Below are positions 31,715-55,427 of a stretch of 64,000 nt of DNA, in pieces (positions within the stretch are counted from its first letter, which is position 1; every line of letters begins with the position of its first letter). Both the position numbers and the translations under genes were made by a program. Source of the stretch: a virus. Its lineage: Duplodnaviria > Heunggongvirae > Uroviricota > Caudoviricetes. The notes under the pieces were generated by a model, which saw only the letters and a list, made by a program, of their open reading frames with translations, was not told the origin of the DNA and did no database searches. The DNA is taken from the IMG/VR virus record IMGVR_UViG_3300032103_000073. One strand, given 5' to 3'.

Positions 31715-32167
31715 GTGTATCACGATTTAAGTCTTTGGTATAAAAATACAACAGAAAAGATATTAGCTTGGCGCGAGTTTAGAACGCAGGCTAAAGATAA
31801 AACGCTAGATGACGTTATCAATCTAGTAGACTTGTGGTGGACATATACGCCGTGGGTCAAAAAAACAATAGACCCGTTTAAACCTGAAACATGGCCTAGT
31901 CCGTGGGATATGATTAGCAAGGGTGAATTTTGCCGCAGTGCAATTGCCTTGGGTCAGGCCTATACATTGTGGATGTGTTTGCCCGGCTCAACAGTTGAGC
32001 TTTGGTTGATTAATAATTTTAGCGAAAAAGACGTACATCTAGTAGTAGTTATTGATGAGAAAACTGTGCTAAATTACACCCTGGGCCATGTGTTAGCTAT
32101 AGAAGATTGCGACTTTGAGGTAATTGACAAGTTTACCAAAGACAGCATTCCTAACATTAAAATATAA
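31715..32167 (+). CDS. possible transglutaminase-like cysteine protease-fold protein
   Basis: FCRSAIAL..YTL...VHLVVVID..VLN may supply a Cys-His-Asp/Asn triad. Confidence 0.35.
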   Translation: MYHDLSLWYKNTTEKILAWREFRTQAKDKTLDDVINLVDLWWTYTPWVKKTIDPFKPETWPSPWDMISKGEFCRSAIALGQAYTLWMCLPGSTVELWLINNFSEKDVHLVVVIDEKTVLNYTLGHVLAIEDCDFEVIDKFTKDSIPNIKI

Positions 32168-32231
32168 TAGAATTATTAAAACACAGGATTAAATAGACTA
32201 CTAAAAAGATGAATAATAAAGGACAAAATAC

Positions 32232-33710
32232 ATGATAATGTCGGGGAAACCTATCACAGTGCTCAAACGTAGCGGAGAGCATGAATTATTGCAAATTGAA
32301 AAGTGGCAAGCTCAGATTTCTAAAGTATGCACTGGTATTGCAGATGTTAGCCAAAGCATGATTGAAATCAAAGCTCAACCTCATTTCTTTGATGGAATTA
32401 CTACAAGAGAAATTGACGAAATTACTCTACGTGCAATTGTAAATTTAATAGACGTAGAATCTAATCCAGAAATAGGACATACAAATTATCAATACGTAGC
32501 AGGAAAGCAGCGATTAAGCATGCTACGAAAAGATGTGTACGGTGACTACCAAGTACCGCATATTTTTGAAATAGTAAAAAAGAACGTAGCGGTTGGTTTA
32601 TACACTCCTGAACTACTGGAATGGTATACAGAAGCAGACTGGAATAAGATGAATGACATGCTGGATCATGAGAAAGATGAACAGTATAGTTATGCAGCTA
32701 TCGAACAGTTAATTGAAAAATATCTAGTTCGCAATCGTGCTACAAAAGAAATTTATGAAACACCGCAGATCCGTTATATGGTTGCGGCAGCAACAGTTAT
32801 GCATAAAGAAGAGCCTAATAGCGCTCGTATGAGATTGATTAAGGAATACTACAATGCTTCTAGTGATGGGCTCTTTACTCTTGCTACACCTGTTCTTGCT
32901 GGTCTTGGCACTCCGACAAAACAATTTAGTAGTTGTGTGCTTATCAGGAGCGATGATGATTTGGATAGTATATTTGCTAGTGGCGAAATGATGGCCAAGT
33001 ATGCTAGCAAACGTGCTGGCATTGGCTTAGAGATTGGTCGCTTGCGCAGTCTAGGAAGTCCTATTAGGGGCGGCGAAATTATGCACACTGGTATGGTACC
33101 ATTCTTAAAGAAATGGTTTGGTGATCTACGCAGTTGCAGTCAAGGAGGTATTCGTAATGCTAGTGCTACGGTTTTCTATCCCATCTGGCATCATCAATTC
33201 GATGACCTTATTGTTCTCAAGAACAACCAAGGAACAGACGAAACTCGTGTCCGCCACATGGATTATGGTGTTGTGCTTTCTGCGTTTTTCTGGAGGAGAC
33301 TCAAGAACAAAGAAAATATTACCTTCTTTGACCCTAATGAAGTTCCCGACCTCTACGAAGCGTTCTATTCAAATACGGACAAGTTCAACGAACTTTATGA
33401 ACTGTATGAAAAGCGTACAGACCTACGTAAAAAAGTAATGTCAGCTGAAGAAGTATTCAAAGGCGGCATACTTAAAGAACGTACAGACACTGGACGCATA
33501 TATCTAGTATTCATTGACAACGTGATGAATCAAGGTCCGTTCGACCCTGAATACCATACAATTTATCAATCGAATTTGTGTCTGGAGATTTTGCTTCCGA
33601 CAGTTGCAATGGGAACAACTAAGAAAAAACTAATTAAAGTCCGCAAAAACAAAGCAAGTGATTTCTTAATGAACAAACCGGAGCAGTTTGTAAAATTGAA
33701 GAAGTTATAA
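32232..33710 (+). CDS. nrdA: ribonucleotide reductase class Ia alpha, N-terminal piece
   Basis: ATP-cone, ATPVLAG, FSSCVL (C225-equivalent), SNLCLE (N437/C439/E441-equivalent), then Lys-rich tail and TAA. Confidence 0.92.
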   Translation: MIMSGKPITVLKRSGEHELLQIEKWQAQISKVCTGIADVSQSMIEIKAQPHFFDGITTREIDEITLRAIVNLIDVESNPEIGHTNYQYVAGKQRLSMLRKDVYGDYQVPHIFEIVKKNVAVGLYTPELLEWYTEADWNKMNDMLDHEKDEQYSYAAIEQLIEKYLVRNRATKEIYETPQIRYMVAAATVMHKEEPNSARMRLIKEYYNASSDGLFTLATPVLAGLGTPTKQFSSCVLIRSDDDLDSIFASGEMMAKYASKRAGIGLEIGRLRSLGSPIRGGEIMHTGMVPFLKKWFGDLRSCSQGGIRNASATVFYPIWHHQFDDLIVLKNNQGTDETRVRHMDYGVVLSAFFWRRLKNKENITFFDPNEVPDLYEAFYSNTDKFNELYELYEKRTDLRKKVMSAEEVFKGGILKERTDTGRIYLVFIDNVMNQGPFDPEYHTIYQSNLCLEILLPTVAMGTTKKKLIKVRKNKASDFLMNKPEQFVKLKKL

Positions 33711-33766
33711 TAATTAAATGTGCCTAAAGTACAGAGTAATGATAAATAGATGTACAGGAGGCACAA

Positions 33767-34537
33767 ATGAACTACTCGGGTTTTATATATGAATGGACAA
33801 ATAAGTTAGACGGTATGAAGTATTTGGGTTCACATAAAGGAACTATAAATGATGGTTATACTGGCAGCGGAAAAAGATTTGAAAATGCCAAGAACAAATA
33901 TGGTATTGAAAATTTTGATAGAGTAATAGTAGAATATGTTGAAAAGGAAGAAGATATTTTGATTAGAGAGCAATATTATTTGGACGAAAGAGATTGTGCC
34001 AAAAGTACTCTCTACTATAATATCTCACCCAACGCAGGTGGCGGCGGTGCAGCGGGCAATGGTCCTAAAATATCTGCTACTAAGAAAAAGAGATTTGCTT
34101 CCGGAGACTTAGTAACACACAACAAAGGTAAGGCAATGAAGGATGAGCAAAAACTTAAATTAGCCGACGAGTGGGAAGTTATTACCCCTGCTAACGAAGT
34201 TTTGACTATCACTAATATGCTTGAATTTTGTCGTCAACATAAACTAAATGCCAGTGCTATGAGCGCCGTGGCCCGTGGCAAGAAGAGTATGTATAAAGGT
34301 TATAAATGTAAAAAGTTAACCAATAAAAGAGATGTTGAATATGAACACAAAGAATATGTGTTTATGACTAAAGAGGAAAGAAGTCAACAACTAAAAGATT
34401 TGGCCATAAAGGGCGGAAAACATCACGAAGCAGTAAAGATTGAATACGAAGGTGTTGTTTATAGTAGTATCGCAGAAGCAAAAGAAGCAACAGGAAAAAG
34501 TTATTTTTTGATTACGAAATATGGAAAAAGAATATGA
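33767..34537 (+). mobile_element. GIY-YIG homing endonuclease inserted within nrdA
   Basis: GFIYEWTNKLDGMKYLGSH..Y.GSG; SD AGGAGG; GATAAATA at 33741. Confidence 0.88.
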
Positions 34538-34815
34538 TTACATTTTATCCTCGTGATATAGGAATGTGGAGAAAAGAATTTAATTTCAGTGATAGACATT
34601 CAATTACATTAGAAGCAAAAGAATATGCTGACCGAAAAGTATTGTATGACCGAGACGAACTAATTGGATTTCTGAAGGAACACGGCGTTAAATTGGATGA
34701 CCCAAATAACCCACTAAGAATTACAGGACCGCACGACAACGAATGGCTTGGGCCAGACACATACGATGTGGTGCAATGGTCTTTACTAGGATGGATTAAG
34801 GATGATTACAAATGA
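34534..34815 (+). CDS. hypothetical cargo protein within the nrdA insertion
   Basis: ATGA overlaps with both the endonuclease and the nrdA C-piece. Confidence 0.6.
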   Translation: MITFYPRDIGMWRKEFNFSDRHSITLEAKEYADRKVLYDRDELIGFLKEHGVKLDDPNNPLRITGPHDNEWLGPDTYDVVQWSLLGWIKDDYK

Positions 34816-35843
34816 ATGAATTATATGAAGAAATAGAACGTCTTCCAGAAGAACTGGATGATGAATATGAGTACTATGAGGTAGATGAAGATGCCGCGAG
34901 GATTAGTTTATGCACTCTCGGTAGTATTAACTGGGGTGCTTTCCGCAATCCAGAGGACATGCGCCGTGCTTGTCGTATCCTGCATCGTAGCCTTAATAAC
35001 ATTCTTGACTATCAAGATTTCTTAAGTATTCAATCTAAACTATCTAATGATGAAATCCGCCCTCTTGGCATCGGTGTCACTAACTTGGCCTACTGGCACG
35101 CCAAACGCGGTATGCAGTACGGCGAACGAGATGCACTGGCAGAAGTTAAGACATGGATGGAACACCAAGCATATTATCTAACAGAAATGTCGGTTGAGTT
35201 GGCTAAAGAACGCGGCGCGTGTGTTGATAGTGGTAAGACACGTTATGGACAAGGCGTGTTCCCCTGGGAGTTACGTGCAGATGGTGCCAACGAGCTAACA
35301 GACTTTACCCCGGAGTTAGATTGGGAAACACTACGTGCCAACATGAAACAATATGGTGTTCGTAATGCTACACAAATGGCAGTTGCACCAGTCGAGTCTA
35401 GCAGTGTTGTTATCAATAGCACAAACGGTATTGAAATGCCAATGAGCTTGATTAGCACAAAAGAATCAAAAGCCGGTAGCTTTACACAAGTCGTTCCTGA
35501 GTATAATAATGCCAGAGTTCGTAAAAACTACCAACTAATGTGGGAACAGCGTGATTGTATTGGGTACTTAAAGACCAGTGCAGTTATTGCAGCATATACA
35601 GATCAAAGTATTAGTACTAACACATTTTACAATCCTGCATATTTTGCAGATAAAAAAGTACCAACAACATTGATTGCTAAAAACCTAATGCTAGCACATC
35701 ACTGGGGATTAAAGACTTTCTACTATAGTTTAATTAACAAGCAAGGTGCAAAAGTAGCACAAGATGAAAATATCATCCATCTCAACACAGTTAAACAAGA
35801 TCAAGAAGAAGATGACGGTGTTTGCGAAAGTTGTGTATTATAA
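34812..35843 (+). CDS. nrdA: ribonucleotide reductase class Ia alpha, C-terminal piece
   Basis: Acidic leader, ISLCTLGSINWG (C462-equivalent), AVAPVESSS, KTFYY Tyr pair, terminal CESC. Confidence 0.92.
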   Translation: MNELYEEIERLPEELDDEYEYYEVDEDAARISLCTLGSINWGAFRNPEDMRRACRILHRSLNNILDYQDFLSIQSKLSNDEIRPLGIGVTNLAYWHAKRGMQYGERDALAEVKTWMEHQAYYLTEMSVELAKERGACVDSGKTRYGQGVFPWELRADGANELTDFTPELDWETLRANMKQYGVRNATQMAVAPVESSSVVINSTNGIEMPMSLISTKESKAGSFTQVVPEYNNARVRKNYQLMWEQRDCIGYLKTSAVIAAYTDQSISTNTFYNPAYFADKKVPTTLIAKNLMLAHHWGLKTFYYSLINKQGAKVAQDENIIHLNTVKQDQEEDDGVCESCVL

Positions 35844-35885
35844 AGGATTTTAACAAGCAGGCGCGCCGAGATGATAAATAACTGC

Positions 35886-36476
35886 ATGAAAGAAAAATAT
35901 GGCCTGACAAAACAATGCAGTTATTGCGGCTCGGCTTTTATTACAAAGCCTAGATTTATAGATTTTTGTTCGCAGAAATGTAAAAATCCTTTAAATAGGG
36001 GAGAGTTTGATCCTTGGAATAAAGGGTTAAAATTGACTGAAGAACAGAAATCTAAACAAAACACTTCTGGCTTGTTAAAAGGACATGGATGGAACAAAGG
36101 TCTTCCAAATGAAAAACAAAGCAAAAAATGGAAAGAAAATAATCCAAATAAAGATGGTAGATTAAATAATTTACGTCCAAAGTCCTATGTAGATGATGAA
36201 TTTACAGCATACAAGAGAGAAGTCCGTAAAGCAACGTATCGTTCTCGCTATCAAATGAAAATAGATGGAGAGATACCGTTAAACACAGGAAAGCGTAAAG
36301 ATCAGTTTCAGCTTGATCATATCGTTCCTTATAAACAGGGTTTTGAGTTAGGAATACCGCCGCATATATTAGGTAGCAAGAGCAATCTAAGGTGGATACT
36401 GGGGGAAGAAAACAGACAAAAATAGGATCGCTTCCAACCAGATGATGTTATTAATAAATTACTAAAGGGAAAATAA
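35886..36476 (+). mobile_element. zinc-finger/NUMOD3/HNH endonuclease with in-frame TAG at 36423-36425
   Basis: C..C...FCSQKC, PWNKG/GWNKG, LDHIVP...SNLR...EENR; frame stays open 16 codons past TAG to a TAA overlapping the iscU ATG. Confidence 0.75.
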
Positions 36477-36878
36477 TGGCTTACAGCGAAAAAGTTATAG
36501 ATCATTATGAGCAACCTCGGAACGTAGGATCTTTTGTCAAGGATGAGCCGCATGTCGGCACCGGCATAGTCGGTGCACCGGCATGCGGCTAGACTAGGCG
36601 ATGTAATGAAGTTGCAAATAAAAGTAAATCCAGAAACAGGCATAATCGAAGATGCACGTTTTAAAACTTACGGCTGCGGCAGTGCTATTGCTAGCTCTAG
36701 CCTAGTTACTGAATTAGTCAAGGGAATGACATTGGATCAAGCAACAAGTATTAAAAATTCTGCCATAGCAGAAGAACTTGCATTACCTCCTGTTAAGATT
36801 CACTGTAGTATTTTAGCAGAAGATGCGATTAAAGCAGCAGTAGAGGATTATAAAAAGAAAAATGATCACTCTAACTGA
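36476..36878 (+). CDS. iscU: Fe-S scaffold IscU interrupted by a 10-nt insert (putative ribosomal bypass)
   Basis: MAYSEKVIDHYEQPRNVGSF...GAPACG (36476-36589) and DVMKLQIKV...KTYGCGSAIAS...PPVKIHCS (36600-36878) join into canonical IscU once 10 nt are removed. Confidence 0.9.
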
Positions 36879-37182
36879 AGCCGCTGTTAAAAAAATTCGA
36901 GCAATGATAACCCGAAGAGGTTCGGGTATTGGCATACGGGTTGGCGTTAAAACAACAGGTTGCTCGGGCTTGGCTTATGTGTTAGAATATGTAGATGCTG
37001 CACAACCCGGAGATGAGAAAATCTTGTGCAACGGTTGTGAAATATATGTAGATCCAAAAAGTTGTCCATACTTACAAGGTATGACAATAGACTTTGTTCG
37101 AAATGGCTTGAACGAAGGGTTTGAATTTAAGAATCCCAATGAGCGAGATCGTTGCGGATGTGGAAGTAGTTTTAGAGTTTAA
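36862..37182 (+). CDS. iscA: Fe-S carrier IscA
   Basis: ITLTEAA, VKTTGCSGLAY, F.F.NPN...RCGCG.SF. Confidence 0.92.
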   Translation: MITLTEAAVKKIRAMITRRGSGIGIRVGVKTTGCSGLAYVLEYVDAAQPGDEKILCNGCEIYVDPKSCPYLQGMTIDFVRNGLNEGFEFKNPNERDRCGCGSSFRV

Positions 37183-37184
37183 TA

Positions 37185-38285
37185 ATGAGTAAAGAACAAT
37201 ATAATTTAACAACACCAACGGACTATACTAGTCGTAAGATGTTTCTAGACCCAGCCGGTCCGGTGACTATTCAGAGGTTTGAAGAAGTTAAGTATAACAA
37301 GATTGCAGATTACGAAAAAACTGCTCGCGGATTCTTCTGGGTCCCCGAAGAAGTTAGCTTAACAAAAGATGCAGCAGACTTTAAGGATGCTAGTGATGCA
37401 ATCAAGCATATCTTTACCAGCAACGTTTTACGTCAAACTGCTCTTGATAGCTTACAAGGCCGCGGTCCAAGTCAAATCTTTACACCAGTTGTAAGTTTGC
37501 CTGAATTGGAAGCACTAATGTATAACTGGAGCTTCTTTGAAACAAATATTCATAGCCGTAGTTACAGCCATATTATCCGCAATATCTATAACGTGCCTAA
37601 AGAAGTGTTTAACACAATTCACGACACTCGAGAAATTGTTGATATGGCGTCAAGTGTAGGAAAGTATTATGATGCACTACACAGGATCAACTCGTTAAAA
37701 GAAATTGGCGGCGATGTCAAAGAAGACGAACACGTTAAGGCAATTTACCTAGCCTTACACGCAAGTTATGCACTAGAAGCTTTTCGCTTTATGGTATCGT
37801 TTGCTACAAGTCTTGCTATGGTTGAGAACAAAATCTTTATCGGCAATGGCAACATTATTAGCTTGATTCTGCAAGACGAACTGCTACACAAAGGCTGGAC
37901 TGCTTTCCTTATCAATCAAGTCGTTAAAGAAGATAGTCGTTTTGCCCGGATAGCAGAACAATGTAAAGAAGAAGTCTATCAAATCTATATGGATGTTATC
38001 CGTGAGGAAAAGGCTTGGGCAGATTACTTGTTTAAGAAAGGACCTGTTATCGGACTTAACGCGAACATTCTTAAAGACTTCGTTGATTACACAGCACACA
38101 GCGCATTAAAGGACATTGGTATTAAATATCAAGCTCACGCACCTAAAACTACTCCTATCCCGTGGTTTAATAAACACAGTGATACTAGTAAAAAACAAAC
38201 GGCTTTACAGGAAAGCGAAAGCACTAGTTATGTTATTGGTGTAATGAGTGATAGTATTGACTACGACGAATTGCCTGCACTATGA
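37185..38285 (+). CDS. nrdB: ribonucleotide reductase class Ia beta
   Basis: FFWVPEE, ETNIHSRSY, LEAFRF, DELLH di-iron ligands, C-terminal ESTSY. Confidence 0.95.
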   Translation: MSKEQYNLTTPTDYTSRKMFLDPAGPVTIQRFEEVKYNKIADYEKTARGFFWVPEEVSLTKDAADFKDASDAIKHIFTSNVLRQTALDSLQGRGPSQIFTPVVSLPELEALMYNWSFFETNIHSRSYSHIIRNIYNVPKEVFNTIHDTREIVDMASSVGKYYDALHRINSLKEIGGDVKEDEHVKAIYLALHASYALEAFRFMVSFATSLAMVENKIFIGNGNIISLILQDELLHKGWTAFLINQVVKEDSRFARIAEQCKEEVYQIYMDVIREEKAWADYLFKKGPVIGLNANILKDFVDYTAHSALKDIGIKYQAHAPKTTPIPWFNKHSDTSKKQTALQESESTSYVIGVMSDSIDYDELPAL

Positions 38286-38452
38286 CTACTAAACAAAAAA
38301 GAAAATCTTGGTGCCCTATGGACGGCACAGGGTATGAAGGATTTTGTCTTGATAGTGTTGCAACTATTAGAGTTAAAAGCGGCAAATGCAATAAAAGACA
38401 CGAATGCCAACAATTAAAAGAACAATTAGACAGGAAGAAAAATGAAAGTTGA
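38282..38452 (+). CDS. small Cys-rich protein (56 aa)
   Basis: MTTKQKRKSWCPMDG...FC...KC.KRHEC; overlaps both neighbours; below the ORF-track cutoff. Confidence 0.45.
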   Translation: MTTKQKRKSWCPMDGTGYEGFCLDSVATIRVKSGKCNKRHECQQLKEQLDRKKNES

Positions 38453-38678
38453 AATTTACACAAAAGATGCTTGCCCATATTGCGTACAGGCAAAAAAGTT
38501 ATTTGAATCTCGCGGCTGGGAATATACAGAACATTACATTGGCCCGGAAACCAGGGAAGCAATGATTGCAGAATTGACTACTCGCCTGGGTGTTGCACCT
38601 CGTACAGTACCTCAAATTTTTATCGACGATGTTAGCATCGGCGGCTACACAGAATTAACAAAATGGACAAAGGAATAA
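38442..38678 (+). CDS. grx: glutaredoxin
   Basis: CPYC, TVPQIFI, IGGY. Confidence 0.92.
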   Translation: MKVEIYTKDACPYCVQAKKLFESRGWEYTEHYIGPETREAMIAELTTRLGVAPRTVPQIFIDDVSIGGYTELTKWTKE

Positions 38679-54026: not shown

Positions 54027-55427
54027 ATGAAACTCGCAAGCAACATTTTGCTGAACACAGACAGCTACAAAGTTAGCATGTTCAAACAATACCCACAAGG
54101 AACTACAGGTGTTTATTCTTACATCGAAAGCAGGGGTGGGCGTTACGATCGCACAGTATTCTTCGGACTACAGGCCTTTATCAAGGAATACCTACTCGAA
54201 CCTATTACTCAGGCAGACATTGATATCGCTGACGAAATCCTTACCGCACACGGTGAGCCTTTCAACCGAGCAGGATGGCAATACATTCTTGACAAGCACA
54301 ATGGATACCTCCCAGTTGTCATTAGAGCCGTTCCTGAAGGAACTGTTGTTCCCGTAAAGAACGTTCTGGCAACTATCGAAAATACAGACCCAGAGTGCTA
54401 CTGGCTAACTACTTATTTGGAAACTGCTTTGCTTCGTGCAGTGTGGTATCCTACTACAGTCGCAACACAAAGTTGGACTATTAAACGAGTCATTCTTGAT
54501 TATTTGGAGAAAACTGGTGACCCTACTCTTATCGATTTTAAGTTGCACGACTTCGGCGCTCGTGGCGTATCGAGTATGGAAAGTGCTGGTATCGGCGGAG
54601 CAGCGCACCTGGTCAACTTTATGGGCACTGACACTATTACTGGTATCCTTTACGCTCGTGAGTATTACAATGCTGGCATTAGCGGTTTCTCAATCCCTGC
54701 CGCAGAACACAGCACCATCACAAGTTGGGGTCGTGAAAACGAAGTAAAAGCCTATGAAAATATGCTTGCTCAGTTTGCTAAGCCTGGAGCTATTGTCGCT
54801 GTGGTGTCTGACAGCTATGATATTTACAATGCGGCCAGCAAACTTTGGGGTGAAGAACTCCGTGAAAAGGTTGTTGCCAGCGGTGCTACCGTTGTCATTC
54901 GTCCTGATAGCGGCGATCCTCTCACTGTTAATCAACAATTGATTGAGATCCTTGGAGAAAAGTTTGGATACACAAAAAACAGCAAAGGATTCAAAGTTCT
55001 TAACAACGTTCGTCTTATCCAAGGTGACGGTGTAAACGAACTCACTATCCGTAGCATTCTTGGTGGCTTTATGGCTATGGGTTGGAGTGCTGACAATATT
55101 GCTTTTGGTATGGGAGGAGCCCTACTGCAAGCAATTGATCGCGATACTCAGAAGTTTGCGATGAAGTGTAGCGCAGTTGAAATCGGTTCAGGCAACTGGA
55201 TTGATGTGCAAAAAGATCCTATTACCGATCCTGGTAAAAAGTCTAAAGCAGGTTGCGTGACTCTTTGGAAGTCAGGTGGCGAGTATGTTAGTGCAGTTAA
55301 CAAACCAACTGGTTGGACTGACCGGGGCATTGGCGATTTCGTTGATGTTCTGGAAACTGTTTACTGTGATGGTAAGTTGATCAAGGAAATTGACTTCGCT
55401 ACTGTTCGTGCTAACAGCATGAAGTAA
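54027..55427 (+). CDS. nadV: nicotinamide phosphoribosyltransferase
   Basis: LNTDSYK.S, LHDFGARG, IPAAEHS, VSDSYD, VIRPDSG, IQGDG, FGMGG, K.SK.G. Confidence 0.93.
   Translation: MKLASNILLNTDSYKVSMFKQYPQGTTGVYSYIESRGGRYDRTVFFGLQAFIKEYLLEPITQADIDIADEILTAHGEPFNRAGWQYILDKHNGYLPVVIRAVPEGTVVPVKNVLATIENTDPECYWLTTYLETALLRAVWYPTTVATQSWTIKRVILDYLEKTGDPTLIDFKLHDFGARGVSSMESAGIGGAAHLVNFMGTDTITGILYAREYYNAGISGFSIPAAEHSTITSWGRENEVKAYENMLAQFAKPGAIVAVVSDSYDIYNAASKLWGEELREKVVASGATVVIRPDSGDPLTVNQQLIEILGEKFGYTKNSKGFKVLNNVRLIQGDGVNELTIRSILGGFMAMGWSADNIAFGMGGALLQAIDRDTQKFAMKCSAVEIGSGNWIDVQKDPITDPGKKSKAGCVTLWKSGGEYVSAVNKPTGWTDRGIGDFVDVLETVYCDGKLIKEIDFATVRANSMK

Follow-up and report, generated by a model that had tools for sequence, protein, structure and literature searches.

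The locus described here raises the question of how a phage ribonucleotide reductase (RNR) can be assembled when the gene of its large subunit, nrdA, is broken within the barrel domain and both halves carry charged extensions at the break. The locus lies in a 64,000-nucleotide stretch (hereafter the window) of the IMG/VR virus record IMGVR_UViG_3300032103_000073, from an uncultured lake-water giant phage (longest contig ~267 kb). A split nrdA with charged tails is already known in outline from phage Aeh1, in the order nrdA-a/mobE/nrdA-b (Friedrich et al. 2007, as cited in PMC3045599; Crona et al. 2011, PMC3045599). From the sequence and by analogy with Aeh1, we read the window locus as an Aeh1-type genes-in-pieces class Ia RNR with a mobile cassette, in which the tails would be required for productive assembly; we put the probability of this reading at about 0.8. 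The two halves of the gene, defined by open reading frames (ORFs), Pfam and alignment with R1, are as follows.

32232–33710, + strand: nrdA-a, the N-terminal 492 amino acids (aa) of a class Ia RNR alpha subunit (ATP cone, all-alpha domain and first barrel half).

34812–35843, + strand: nrdA-b, the C-terminal 343 aa of the RNR alpha subunit (second barrel half).

The nrdA-a product ends in ...SNLCLEILLPTVAMGTTKKKLIKVRKNKASDFLMNKPEQFVKLKKL at its stop codon, and the nrdA-b product starts with MNELYEEIERLPEELDDEYEYYEVDEDAARISLCTL, its ATG being preceded by AAGGA at a distance of 9 nucleotides (nt). The Pfam barrel profile PF02867 is split at 219/220, with positions 1–219 on nrdA-a, which also matches PF03477 and PF00317, and positions 220–522 on nrdA-b. 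In an alignment with PDB structures, residues 8–461 of NrdA-a pair with residues 5–450 of Escherichia coli R1 and residues 23–322 of NrdA-b with residues 451–747; the junction corresponds to R1 450/451, and the core is complete, with no segment missing. The break falls in the loop separating the equivalents of C439 and E441 from that of C462, just where an earlier note, made from the letters of the window, had placed it. Piece a carries C235 (equivalent to C225) and N448, C450 and E452 (N437, C439 and E441), and piece b carries C34 (C462), Y304 and Y305 (Y730 and Y731) and C338 and C341, the C-terminal cysteine pair. The C225/C462 redox pair thus lies on separate polypeptides, as that note had also claimed. 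Taken over both pieces, the protein has the ATP cone, the all-alpha domain and the barrel of a class Ia NrdA, together with the equivalents of C225, N437, C439, E441, C462, Y730, Y731 and C754/C759.

Could the split gene be a decaying pseudogene in a phage that relies on the ribonucleotide reductase of its host? We give this next to no credence. Only the interruption itself speaks for it, whereas both halves are open frames of full length in which every catalytic, radical-transfer and C-terminal redox residue is present, and they are 75–90% identical to relatives that show no frame disruptions in more than 100 clusters. Furthermore, nrdB and a glutaredoxin gene lie downstream in the same operon, and the split enzyme of Aeh1 is fully active (PMC3045599).

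At the break, each half is extended by a charged tail.

33615–33707, + strand: basic C-terminal tail of NrdA-a (residues 462–492, net charge +9; from 33603 if the altered loop stub VAMG is counted).

34812–34877, + strand: acidic N-terminal tail of NrdA-b (residues 1–22, net charge −9).

Residues 23–29 of NrdA-b (EVDEDAA) correspond to the end of the ancestral loop. Recounting reproduced the 11 Lys/Arg against 2 Asp/Glu reported earlier for the end of the N-piece and the 14 Asp/Glu in 27 aa at the start of the C-piece. Since the same tails recur in more than 100 metagenomic protein clusters, with invariant positions, they did not arise by chance. A length-restricted search with NrdA-b gave 1881 proteins; with few exceptions, the 120 best are 335–355 aa long and share the start MNxLYEEIExLPEELDDEYEYYE[IV]DE. 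The acidic tail is conserved in length, charge and specific residues across 60 distinct sequences and the basic tail across 14, with net charges of +6 to +10 for the basic tails and a median of −13 for the acidic ones. The invariant positions are K466, V470, K472, F478, K482 and V487 in the basic tail and M1, Y5, Y19, Y21 and E23 at the acidic end. Hydrophobic or aromatic residues are invariant or nearly so at I468, V470, F478 and V487 of NrdA-a and at L4, Y5, I8, L11, P12, Y19 and Y21 of NrdA-b.

Two scans of IMG/VR yielded ~600 related loci. The intact relatives (115 distinct sequences of the piece-b core; ~77–81% protein identity to the window) carry neither tail and read LPT-KSFKRLDDxxG-RIALCTL, with the 11-residue loop KSFKRLDDxxG in the place of the tails. 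The earlier note had proposed to look for the same tail pair in other split nrdA genes and for its absence from intact ones; the pair is indeed present in the split genes of those clusters, and the 115 intact relatives have the 11-residue loop alone, not the tails as an internal loop. In the 14 split loci with both halves available, the tails occur as two linked variants, each basic tail always being paired with its own acidic tail. The first variant, to which the window belongs, joins VAMGTTKKK...EQFVKLKKL to ...YYEVDEDAARISL, and the second joins KSFKRLDPxRKLIRVKKSNVDEFMKNKSNDIVKIRKIK to ...YYEIDEAEGRVAL.

What such tails do is known from Aeh1, the one case studied, which the earlier note had described, in agreement with the published work, as having a functional nrdA split by mobE. 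The Aeh1 tails are oppositely charged, with isoelectric points of 10.4 and 3.8 (Crona et al. 2011, PMC3045599), and on purification the Aeh1 proteins came as two chains that still had their tails (PMC3045599). Deletion of the tails lowered the activity ~2000-fold; the tail-less halves still formed an a/b heterodimer, but neither the (a/b)2 dimer of heterodimers nor the holoenzyme (PMC3045599). Crona et al. proposed that the tails arrived with the insertion of mobE and serve as interaction domains, possibly via charge (PMC3045599). We scored basic tails with a profile of those of the lake-phage (window) family against composition-preserving shuffles, 5000 for each tail. The Aeh1 tail reached 15.6 bits, a score attained by at most 1 of the 5000 shuffles, and the tails of L171 and L173, two T4-like metagenomic contigs, reached 23.4 and 20.3 bits, each with 0 of 5000. 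The aligned core reads KLIRVKKSxVDEF against MLFKVKKSEVDKF. As judged from these sequences, the basic tail of the window is homologous to those of Aeh1, L171 and L173.

A search of 1.84 billion representative sequences with the basic-tail profile revealed no donor family, in a library that hides split forms clustering with intact genes; its matches comprised two fragments of NrdA-a, a spurious repeat protein and a chimera. A separate observation concerns an 839-nt metagenomic contig (L177, 370–839), in which a DUF3008-like ORF of 79 aa has the final 25 residues of the basic tail at its C-terminus (KVKKEVASDFLLNKPEQFVKLKKLK) and is followed by the same GIY-YIG endonuclease gene as in the window. 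This contig is either an ectopic copy of the cassette with part of the tail or an assembly chimera.

Between the two tails lie the remaining parts of the cassette.

33719–33765, + strand: predicted RNA hairpin, in which GUGCCU (33720–33725) pairs with the AGGAGG ribosome-binding region of the endonuclease (33756–33764).

33767–34537, + strand: free-standing GIY-YIG homing endonuclease gene, 256 aa (Pfam GIY-YIG, 3.5e-5; PHROG 314 homing endonuclease, 1.8e-30).

34534–34815, + strand: orf93, an ORF of 93 codons that overlaps the stop codon of the endonuclease gene and whose own stop overlaps the start of nrdA-b (ATGA).

Residues 116–251 of the endonuclease match residues 106–228 of Aeh1 MobE (36% identity, E = 3e-22, BLASTP). 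The C-terminal half in common, together with a GIY-YIG N-terminus in one and an HNH N-terminus in the other, indicates a common DNA-binding module on which the nuclease domain has been swapped. The endonuclease of the window is thus not an HNH MobE like that of Aeh1, being MobE-like in its C-terminal half alone, and we treat the GIY-YIG domain as a nuclease swap within one cassette family. One C-terminal DNA-binding module is also found in the nrdA-site endonucleases of the window (33767–34537), L005 (2948–3661), L087 (4261–4989) and L175 (3–614), whose N-terminal domains differ: GIY-YIG, HNH and one without a family match. These endonucleases are a clear case in which the nuclease domain is exchanged and the targeting module kept. 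orf93 has no match in Pfam or PHROG, and other copies of the cassette have different small ORFs in its place. The hairpin has a predicted folding energy of −21.2 kcal/mol (z = −3.07; 1 of 200 shuffles equally stable) and may keep translation of the endonuclease low within the RNR transcript, by analogy with Aeh1 mobE; in Aeh1, RNA structure is said to limit MobE expression (PMC3045599, Fig. 5 legend). A scan for promoters and terminators gave none above shuffle expectation.

The DNA carried between the halves is not fixed. Five kinds of cargo were seen, including none at all: the GIY-YIG type of the window (also in L088, L093, L162 and L163), a second GIY-YIG type (L003, L090 and L091), an ORF of 243 aa with a MobE-like C-terminus (L087 and L092), an HNH MobE (Aeh1, L171, L173 and Escherichia phage e11/2) and a bare gap of 45 nt (L007) or 7 nt (L086). 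In the two bare alleles, the stop codon, the ribosome-binding site and the start codon are kept.

The phylogeny was examined with an unrooted tree of the piece-b core from 124 split and 115 intact genes (239 sequences). The label split or intact changes 55 times on this tree, at least 24 of the changes being forced by well-supported branches, and shuffled labels give ~80 changes. The nearest neighbour of the window is an intact gene (90% identity), and that of Aeh1 is the intact nrdA of phage PX29 (93%). A single clade of split genes was rejected by the approximately unbiased test on 51 sequences (difference in log likelihood 143, p = 9e-5). This interleaving, with at least 24 changes and monophyly rejected, indicates that the tails travel within a mobile, non-splicing cassette. 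The tail-coding DNA is often more similar between loci than the flanking core: between L007 and L162, the two tails are 95% and 90% identical and the cores 67% and 75%. The varied cargo, the interleaved tree, the identity of the tail DNA and the nrdA backbones of Aeh1 and the window, only ~41% identical, together point to one cassette made of the tails and an endonuclease slot, and as the simplest reading of these sequences it would spread among nrdA alleles by homing or recombination. Separately, we considered the window and its nearest intact relative, L110, as an isogenic pair of filled and empty sites and rejected it, the DNA being only 70–92% identical.

Are the extensions nonetheless neutral debris of the insertion, produced by read-through to the first stop codon and by a fortuitous start, with the native barrel interface alone assembling the halves? 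The region from 33600 to 33749, which comprises tail-coding and intergenic DNA, has a GC content of 0.30 against ~0.40 in the flanks, as foreign DNA would, and the Aeh1 halves heterodimerise even without tails. However, neutral debris would hardly be kept in length, charge and specific residues across 60 acidic and 14 basic sequences, the tails persist after loss of the endonuclease in L007 and L086, the basic tail remains recognisable between nrdA lineages that are ~41% identical, and tail deletion abolishes activity in Aeh1. We consider neutral debris very unlikely.

A further explanation would be that an undetected intron, a degenerate split intein or ribosomal bypass restores a single polypeptide or mRNA from the two pieces. 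Such devices occur close by: related phages use a split intein at another site of nrdA (L007; P0123–P0125), the catalytic Cys of the relative P0101 is the site of an intein, iscU of the window phage itself has a coding gap of 10 nt, and Crona et al. mentioned a degenerate intein as a possible origin of the tails (PMC3045599). Against this, an Rfam search of 32000–38500 found no intron family at E values up to 1, with one irrelevant match of 19 bits, and the intein/Hint families PF14890 and PF07591 matched neither half of the window gene, whereas relatives with real split inteins do match. The basic tail has no nucleophile block at its start, and the acidic tail lacks a final His-Asn ahead of Cys, Ser or Thr. 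Both halves come with a stop, ribosome-binding site and start of their own, even where the endonuclease is missing, and the Aeh1 proteins were purified as two tailed chains (PMC3045599). Rejoining therefore seems extremely unlikely, and the earlier description of the arrangement as non-splicing is supported. With no Rfam intron and no intein domain around it, the endonuclease is free-standing, outside any intron or intein.

Two relatives show how many mobile elements share this stretch of nrdA. In L007 (1–3669), the gene is in three pieces: the first break is of the split-intein kind, in the order very short N-fragment (CVTPDTWVEVLDEDNSIDK up to the stop codon), ORF of 369 aa without a family match and C-fragment ending THN|SQGG, and the second is of the tail type, with no endonuclease and a gap of 45 nt. 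Trans-splicing and non-splicing solutions can thus coexist in one gene. In P0101, a metagenomic NrdA relative of 365 aa, an intein C-fragment ending ...GILVHN stands immediately before CEILLPT at the catalytic cysteine, so that a third site of mobile elements lies within this short part of nrdA.

How would the tails act? The earlier note took them for an evolved clasp that re-assembles the enzyme, perhaps as an antiparallel salt-bridged strand pair, and that might serve as a reusable tag. On this reading, the two peptides would pair autonomously, and this contact would hold NrdA-a to NrdA-b. Net charges of opposite sign (+9 and −9 in the window) are conserved across the family, both tails have period-2 residue patterns (KLIKVRK and EYEYYEVDE), the basic-tail variant always accompanies its own acidic-tail variant in the 14 loci, and charge–charge contact is one option raised by Crona et al. 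(PMC3045599). However, in Aeh1 the halves still pair as an a/b heterodimer when the tails are removed, and what suffers is the (a/b)2 form, the holoenzyme and the activity (PMC3045599); re-assembly of the halves by a clasp is therefore too simple a picture. The linkage of the tail variants is equally explained by both lying on one cassette, and the invariant hydrophobic and aromatic positions and the helix-like pattern in the middle of the basic tail better suit a folded unit. An autonomous heterodimerising clasp is therefore doubtful. Of the earlier proposal, the part that is supported is that the tails are evolved, non-splicing assembly elements, as the homology to Aeh1 and the ~2000-fold loss there indicate; since Crona et al. 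(2011, PMC3045599) had already proposed charge–charge assembly, this part is a rediscovery.

Structure prediction was of limited help in this respect. A complex prediction of the tails only (NrdA-a 453–492 with NrdA-b 1–33, own alignments) scored 0.29 against a mark of 0.32 in a run without controls and speaks neither for nor against binding. An AlphaFold2 model of a read-through fusion of the endonuclease-free L007 (P0136:136-680, TAG and TGA read as residues) has a mean predicted local distance difference test score (pLDDT) of 56; its MAFFT alignment had the acidic tails in wrong columns. With low confidence, it predicts the basic tail as strand-helix-strand (pLDDT ~60–66) and the acidic tail as a strand (54–70). 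NrdA-a modelled alone from 49 alignment rows has a mean pLDDT of 53, with the tail below 50 and a helix at 472–481 as its sole element; the strands flanking the helix and the strand at EYEYYEVDE appear in the low-confidence fusion model only. The conservation fits a strand-helix-strand picture, with hydrophobic residues at i/i+2 in KLIRV and DIVKI and at i/i+3/i+4 in VDEFM. The conserved hydrophobic and aromatic positions suggest a small, packed fold and not a zipper held by charge alone.

The anatomy of the locus, the conservation of the tails, the lack of tails in intact genes, the relation by homology of the basic tail and of the DNA-binding half of the endonuclease to those of Aeh1, the phylogeny and the cargo were computed here, and the separateness of the chains and the need for the tails are carried over from Aeh1. 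From these we infer how the tails fold and what they contact, as well as how homing works, which gives the following picture. A homing-endonuclease cassette would have entered a surface loop between the catalytic finger (equivalents of C439 and E441) and the strand with the C462 equivalent. It would supply ~31 basic codons and a stop to the upstream half, then an endonuclease gene (here GIY-YIG, with orf93), and then a ribosome-binding site, a start codon and ~22 acidic codons to the downstream half. The halves would be translated separately and assemble non-covalently into a composite active site, forming with NrdB an (a/b)2-beta2 enzyme as in Aeh1. By the same analogy, the extensions would be needed mainly where a/b heterodimers pair and bind NrdB, and they probably co-fold into a small mixed alpha/beta unit held by charge and by the conserved hydrophobic and aromatic residues. 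The tails would belong to the mobile element and not to the host gene; the cassette would move between nrdA lineages by homing or recombination and might swap or lose its endonuclease while the split gene still works.

Several points weigh against this picture. Its function is transferred from Aeh1, a homolog whose core is only ~41% identical. The acidic tails of the window type (ELDDEYEYYE) and the Aeh1 type (xFYEDDEYTT) have a common composition and a D[DE]EY motif 18 residues before Cys, but a profile hidden Markov model (HMM), a right-anchored ungapped position-specific scoring matrix and a reverse HMM all scored one type against the other no higher than shuffles. The interleaving of split and intact genes could stem partly from recombination within nrdA and not from cassette movement alone, and on an unrooted tree gain of the split cannot be told from its loss. 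The structural models are weak, as the two low-confidence AlphaFold runs (pLDDT 56 and 53) agree only on the helix in the middle of the basic tail. We nevertheless regard the split as real and, by strong analogy with Aeh1, as functional.

Downstream of the split gene, the RNR operon continues with the following features.

35871–36425, + strand: orf184, weakly HNH-endonuclease-like, directly after nrdA-b (PHROG 5104, 1.4e-9; PHROG 1271 HNH endonuclease, 1.5e-4).

36476–36878: iscU-like gene (ORF, Pfam).

36862–37182: iscA-like gene (ORF, Pfam).

37185–38285, + strand: nrdB, the RNR small subunit and partner of the split large subunit (Pfam PF00268, 2.5e-41).

38442–38678: glutaredoxin-like gene (assigned from its ORF; relatives have a recorded Pfam Glutaredoxin match here).

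In relatives (L003, 7025–7735), a clear MobE-like HNH gene occupies the position of orf184; this place, before nrdB, we take to be the classic location of mobE in T4. The IscU-like and IscA-like Fe-S assembly genes (36476–37182) are part of the RNR operon here, placed after nrdA-b and before nrdB; in the relative L162, iscU/iscA-like genes are located upstream instead, next to a B12-binding radical SAM gene. The iscU-like gene of the window has a coding gap of 10 nt: the frame from ATG 36476 reads MAYSEKVIDHYEQPRNVGSFVKDEPHVGTGIVGAPACG and ends at TAG 36590, and the conserved continuation DVMKLQIKV follows in the +1 frame from GAT 36600. The gap, TAGACTAGGC, comes after one GGC and ends in another, resembling a take-off and landing pair, and the local fold is not significant (z = −1.25). 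The window also encodes a large terminase and helicases, as well as a nicotinamide phosphoribosyltransferase (54027–55427; PHROG 448, E = 1e-166), an auxiliary gene of nicotinamide adenine dinucleotide salvage typical of large phages. Neither the locus nor L171 had a megablast match among GenBank phages.

The literature that we searched treats the split RNR of Aeh1 as a single curiosity; a paper of 2023 speaks of a split RNR 'in at least one instance' (PMC10448857). The arrangement is instead a large and still moving family that extends from lake-water giant phages to Aeh1 and many cultured T4-like coliphages. New with respect to the searched literature are the size of the family, the distant homology of the basic tails, the endonuclease-free alleles and the movement of the tails with the element. 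The tails stay conserved where the endonuclease has been exchanged or has disappeared, which supports the proposal by Crona et al. that the mobile element carries with it a remedy for the harm of its insertion. It is tempting, though no more than tentative, to go further and to regard the tails as a small autonomous two-chain domain (basic strand-helix-strand with acidic helix-strand), the cassette's own 'antidote'. If this were true, such cassettes would join introns and inteins as a third kind of mobile element that neutralises itself, entering essential genes with no need for splicing, and they would offer portable heterodimerisation tags from nature. The family offers dozens of natural tail variants for work on structure and design.

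Comparison with known systems places the locus nearest to Aeh1. Both have the same gene broken at the same point (after LPT plus 4–11 residues and before xSLCTL), halves in separately translatable ORFs, and a basic C-terminal and an acidic N-terminal tail of similar length, the basic tails being homologous (KLIKVRKNKASDF against MLFKVKKSEVDKF). They also share the C-terminal DNA-binding half of the endonuclease, a predicted hairpin over the endonuclease ribosome-binding site and closest relatives with an intact nrdA. They differ in the nuclease domain (GIY-YIG in the window, HNH in Aeh1), in the additional ORF of 93 codons in the window cassette, in the nrdA backbone and in the genome, that of an uncultured lake-water phage against that of a T4-like Aeromonas phage.

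Fractured genes with split inteins and a free-standing endonuclease likewise divide an essential gene, often nrdA, into two ORFs, and an electrostatic association of their halves has been proposed (Dassa et al. 2009, PMC2677866). Unlike in the window, these halves carry intein blocks and are covalently joined by trans-splicing; the window tails have no intein motifs and, by homology to Aeh1, would be retained on the mature proteins. The topoisomerase II of phage T4, split into gp39 and gp60 by mobA, is also a case of an endonuclease-associated split of an essential enzyme. The extra residues at its new C- and N-termini have been described as an 'assembly bracket' (PMC11461880), and Crona et al. 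saw the same charge pattern there (PMC3045599). The enzyme and the tails are different ones, however, and gene 60 also requires a translational bypass of 50 nt.

In GenBank, 163 phage records, most of them from T4-like phages of Escherichia, Shigella, Yersinia and Salmonella, cover the T4-like NrdA-a end including the tail. The coliphage split nrdA genes are annotated merely as two NrdA entries, and our literature search found no paper that discusses them. In Escherichia phage e11/2 (KJ668714), the locus is annotated NrdA / MobE / NrdA. It has the split site, the cassette layout and a homologous basic tail (RLIKIKKSDVAKF) in common with the window, and differs from it in the HNH MobE endonuclease and in an acidic tail of the Aeh1 type, with YEDDEYTT. 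Phages such as e11/2, which are tractable in E. coli, are well suited to the study of how short peptides can reassemble a split active site.

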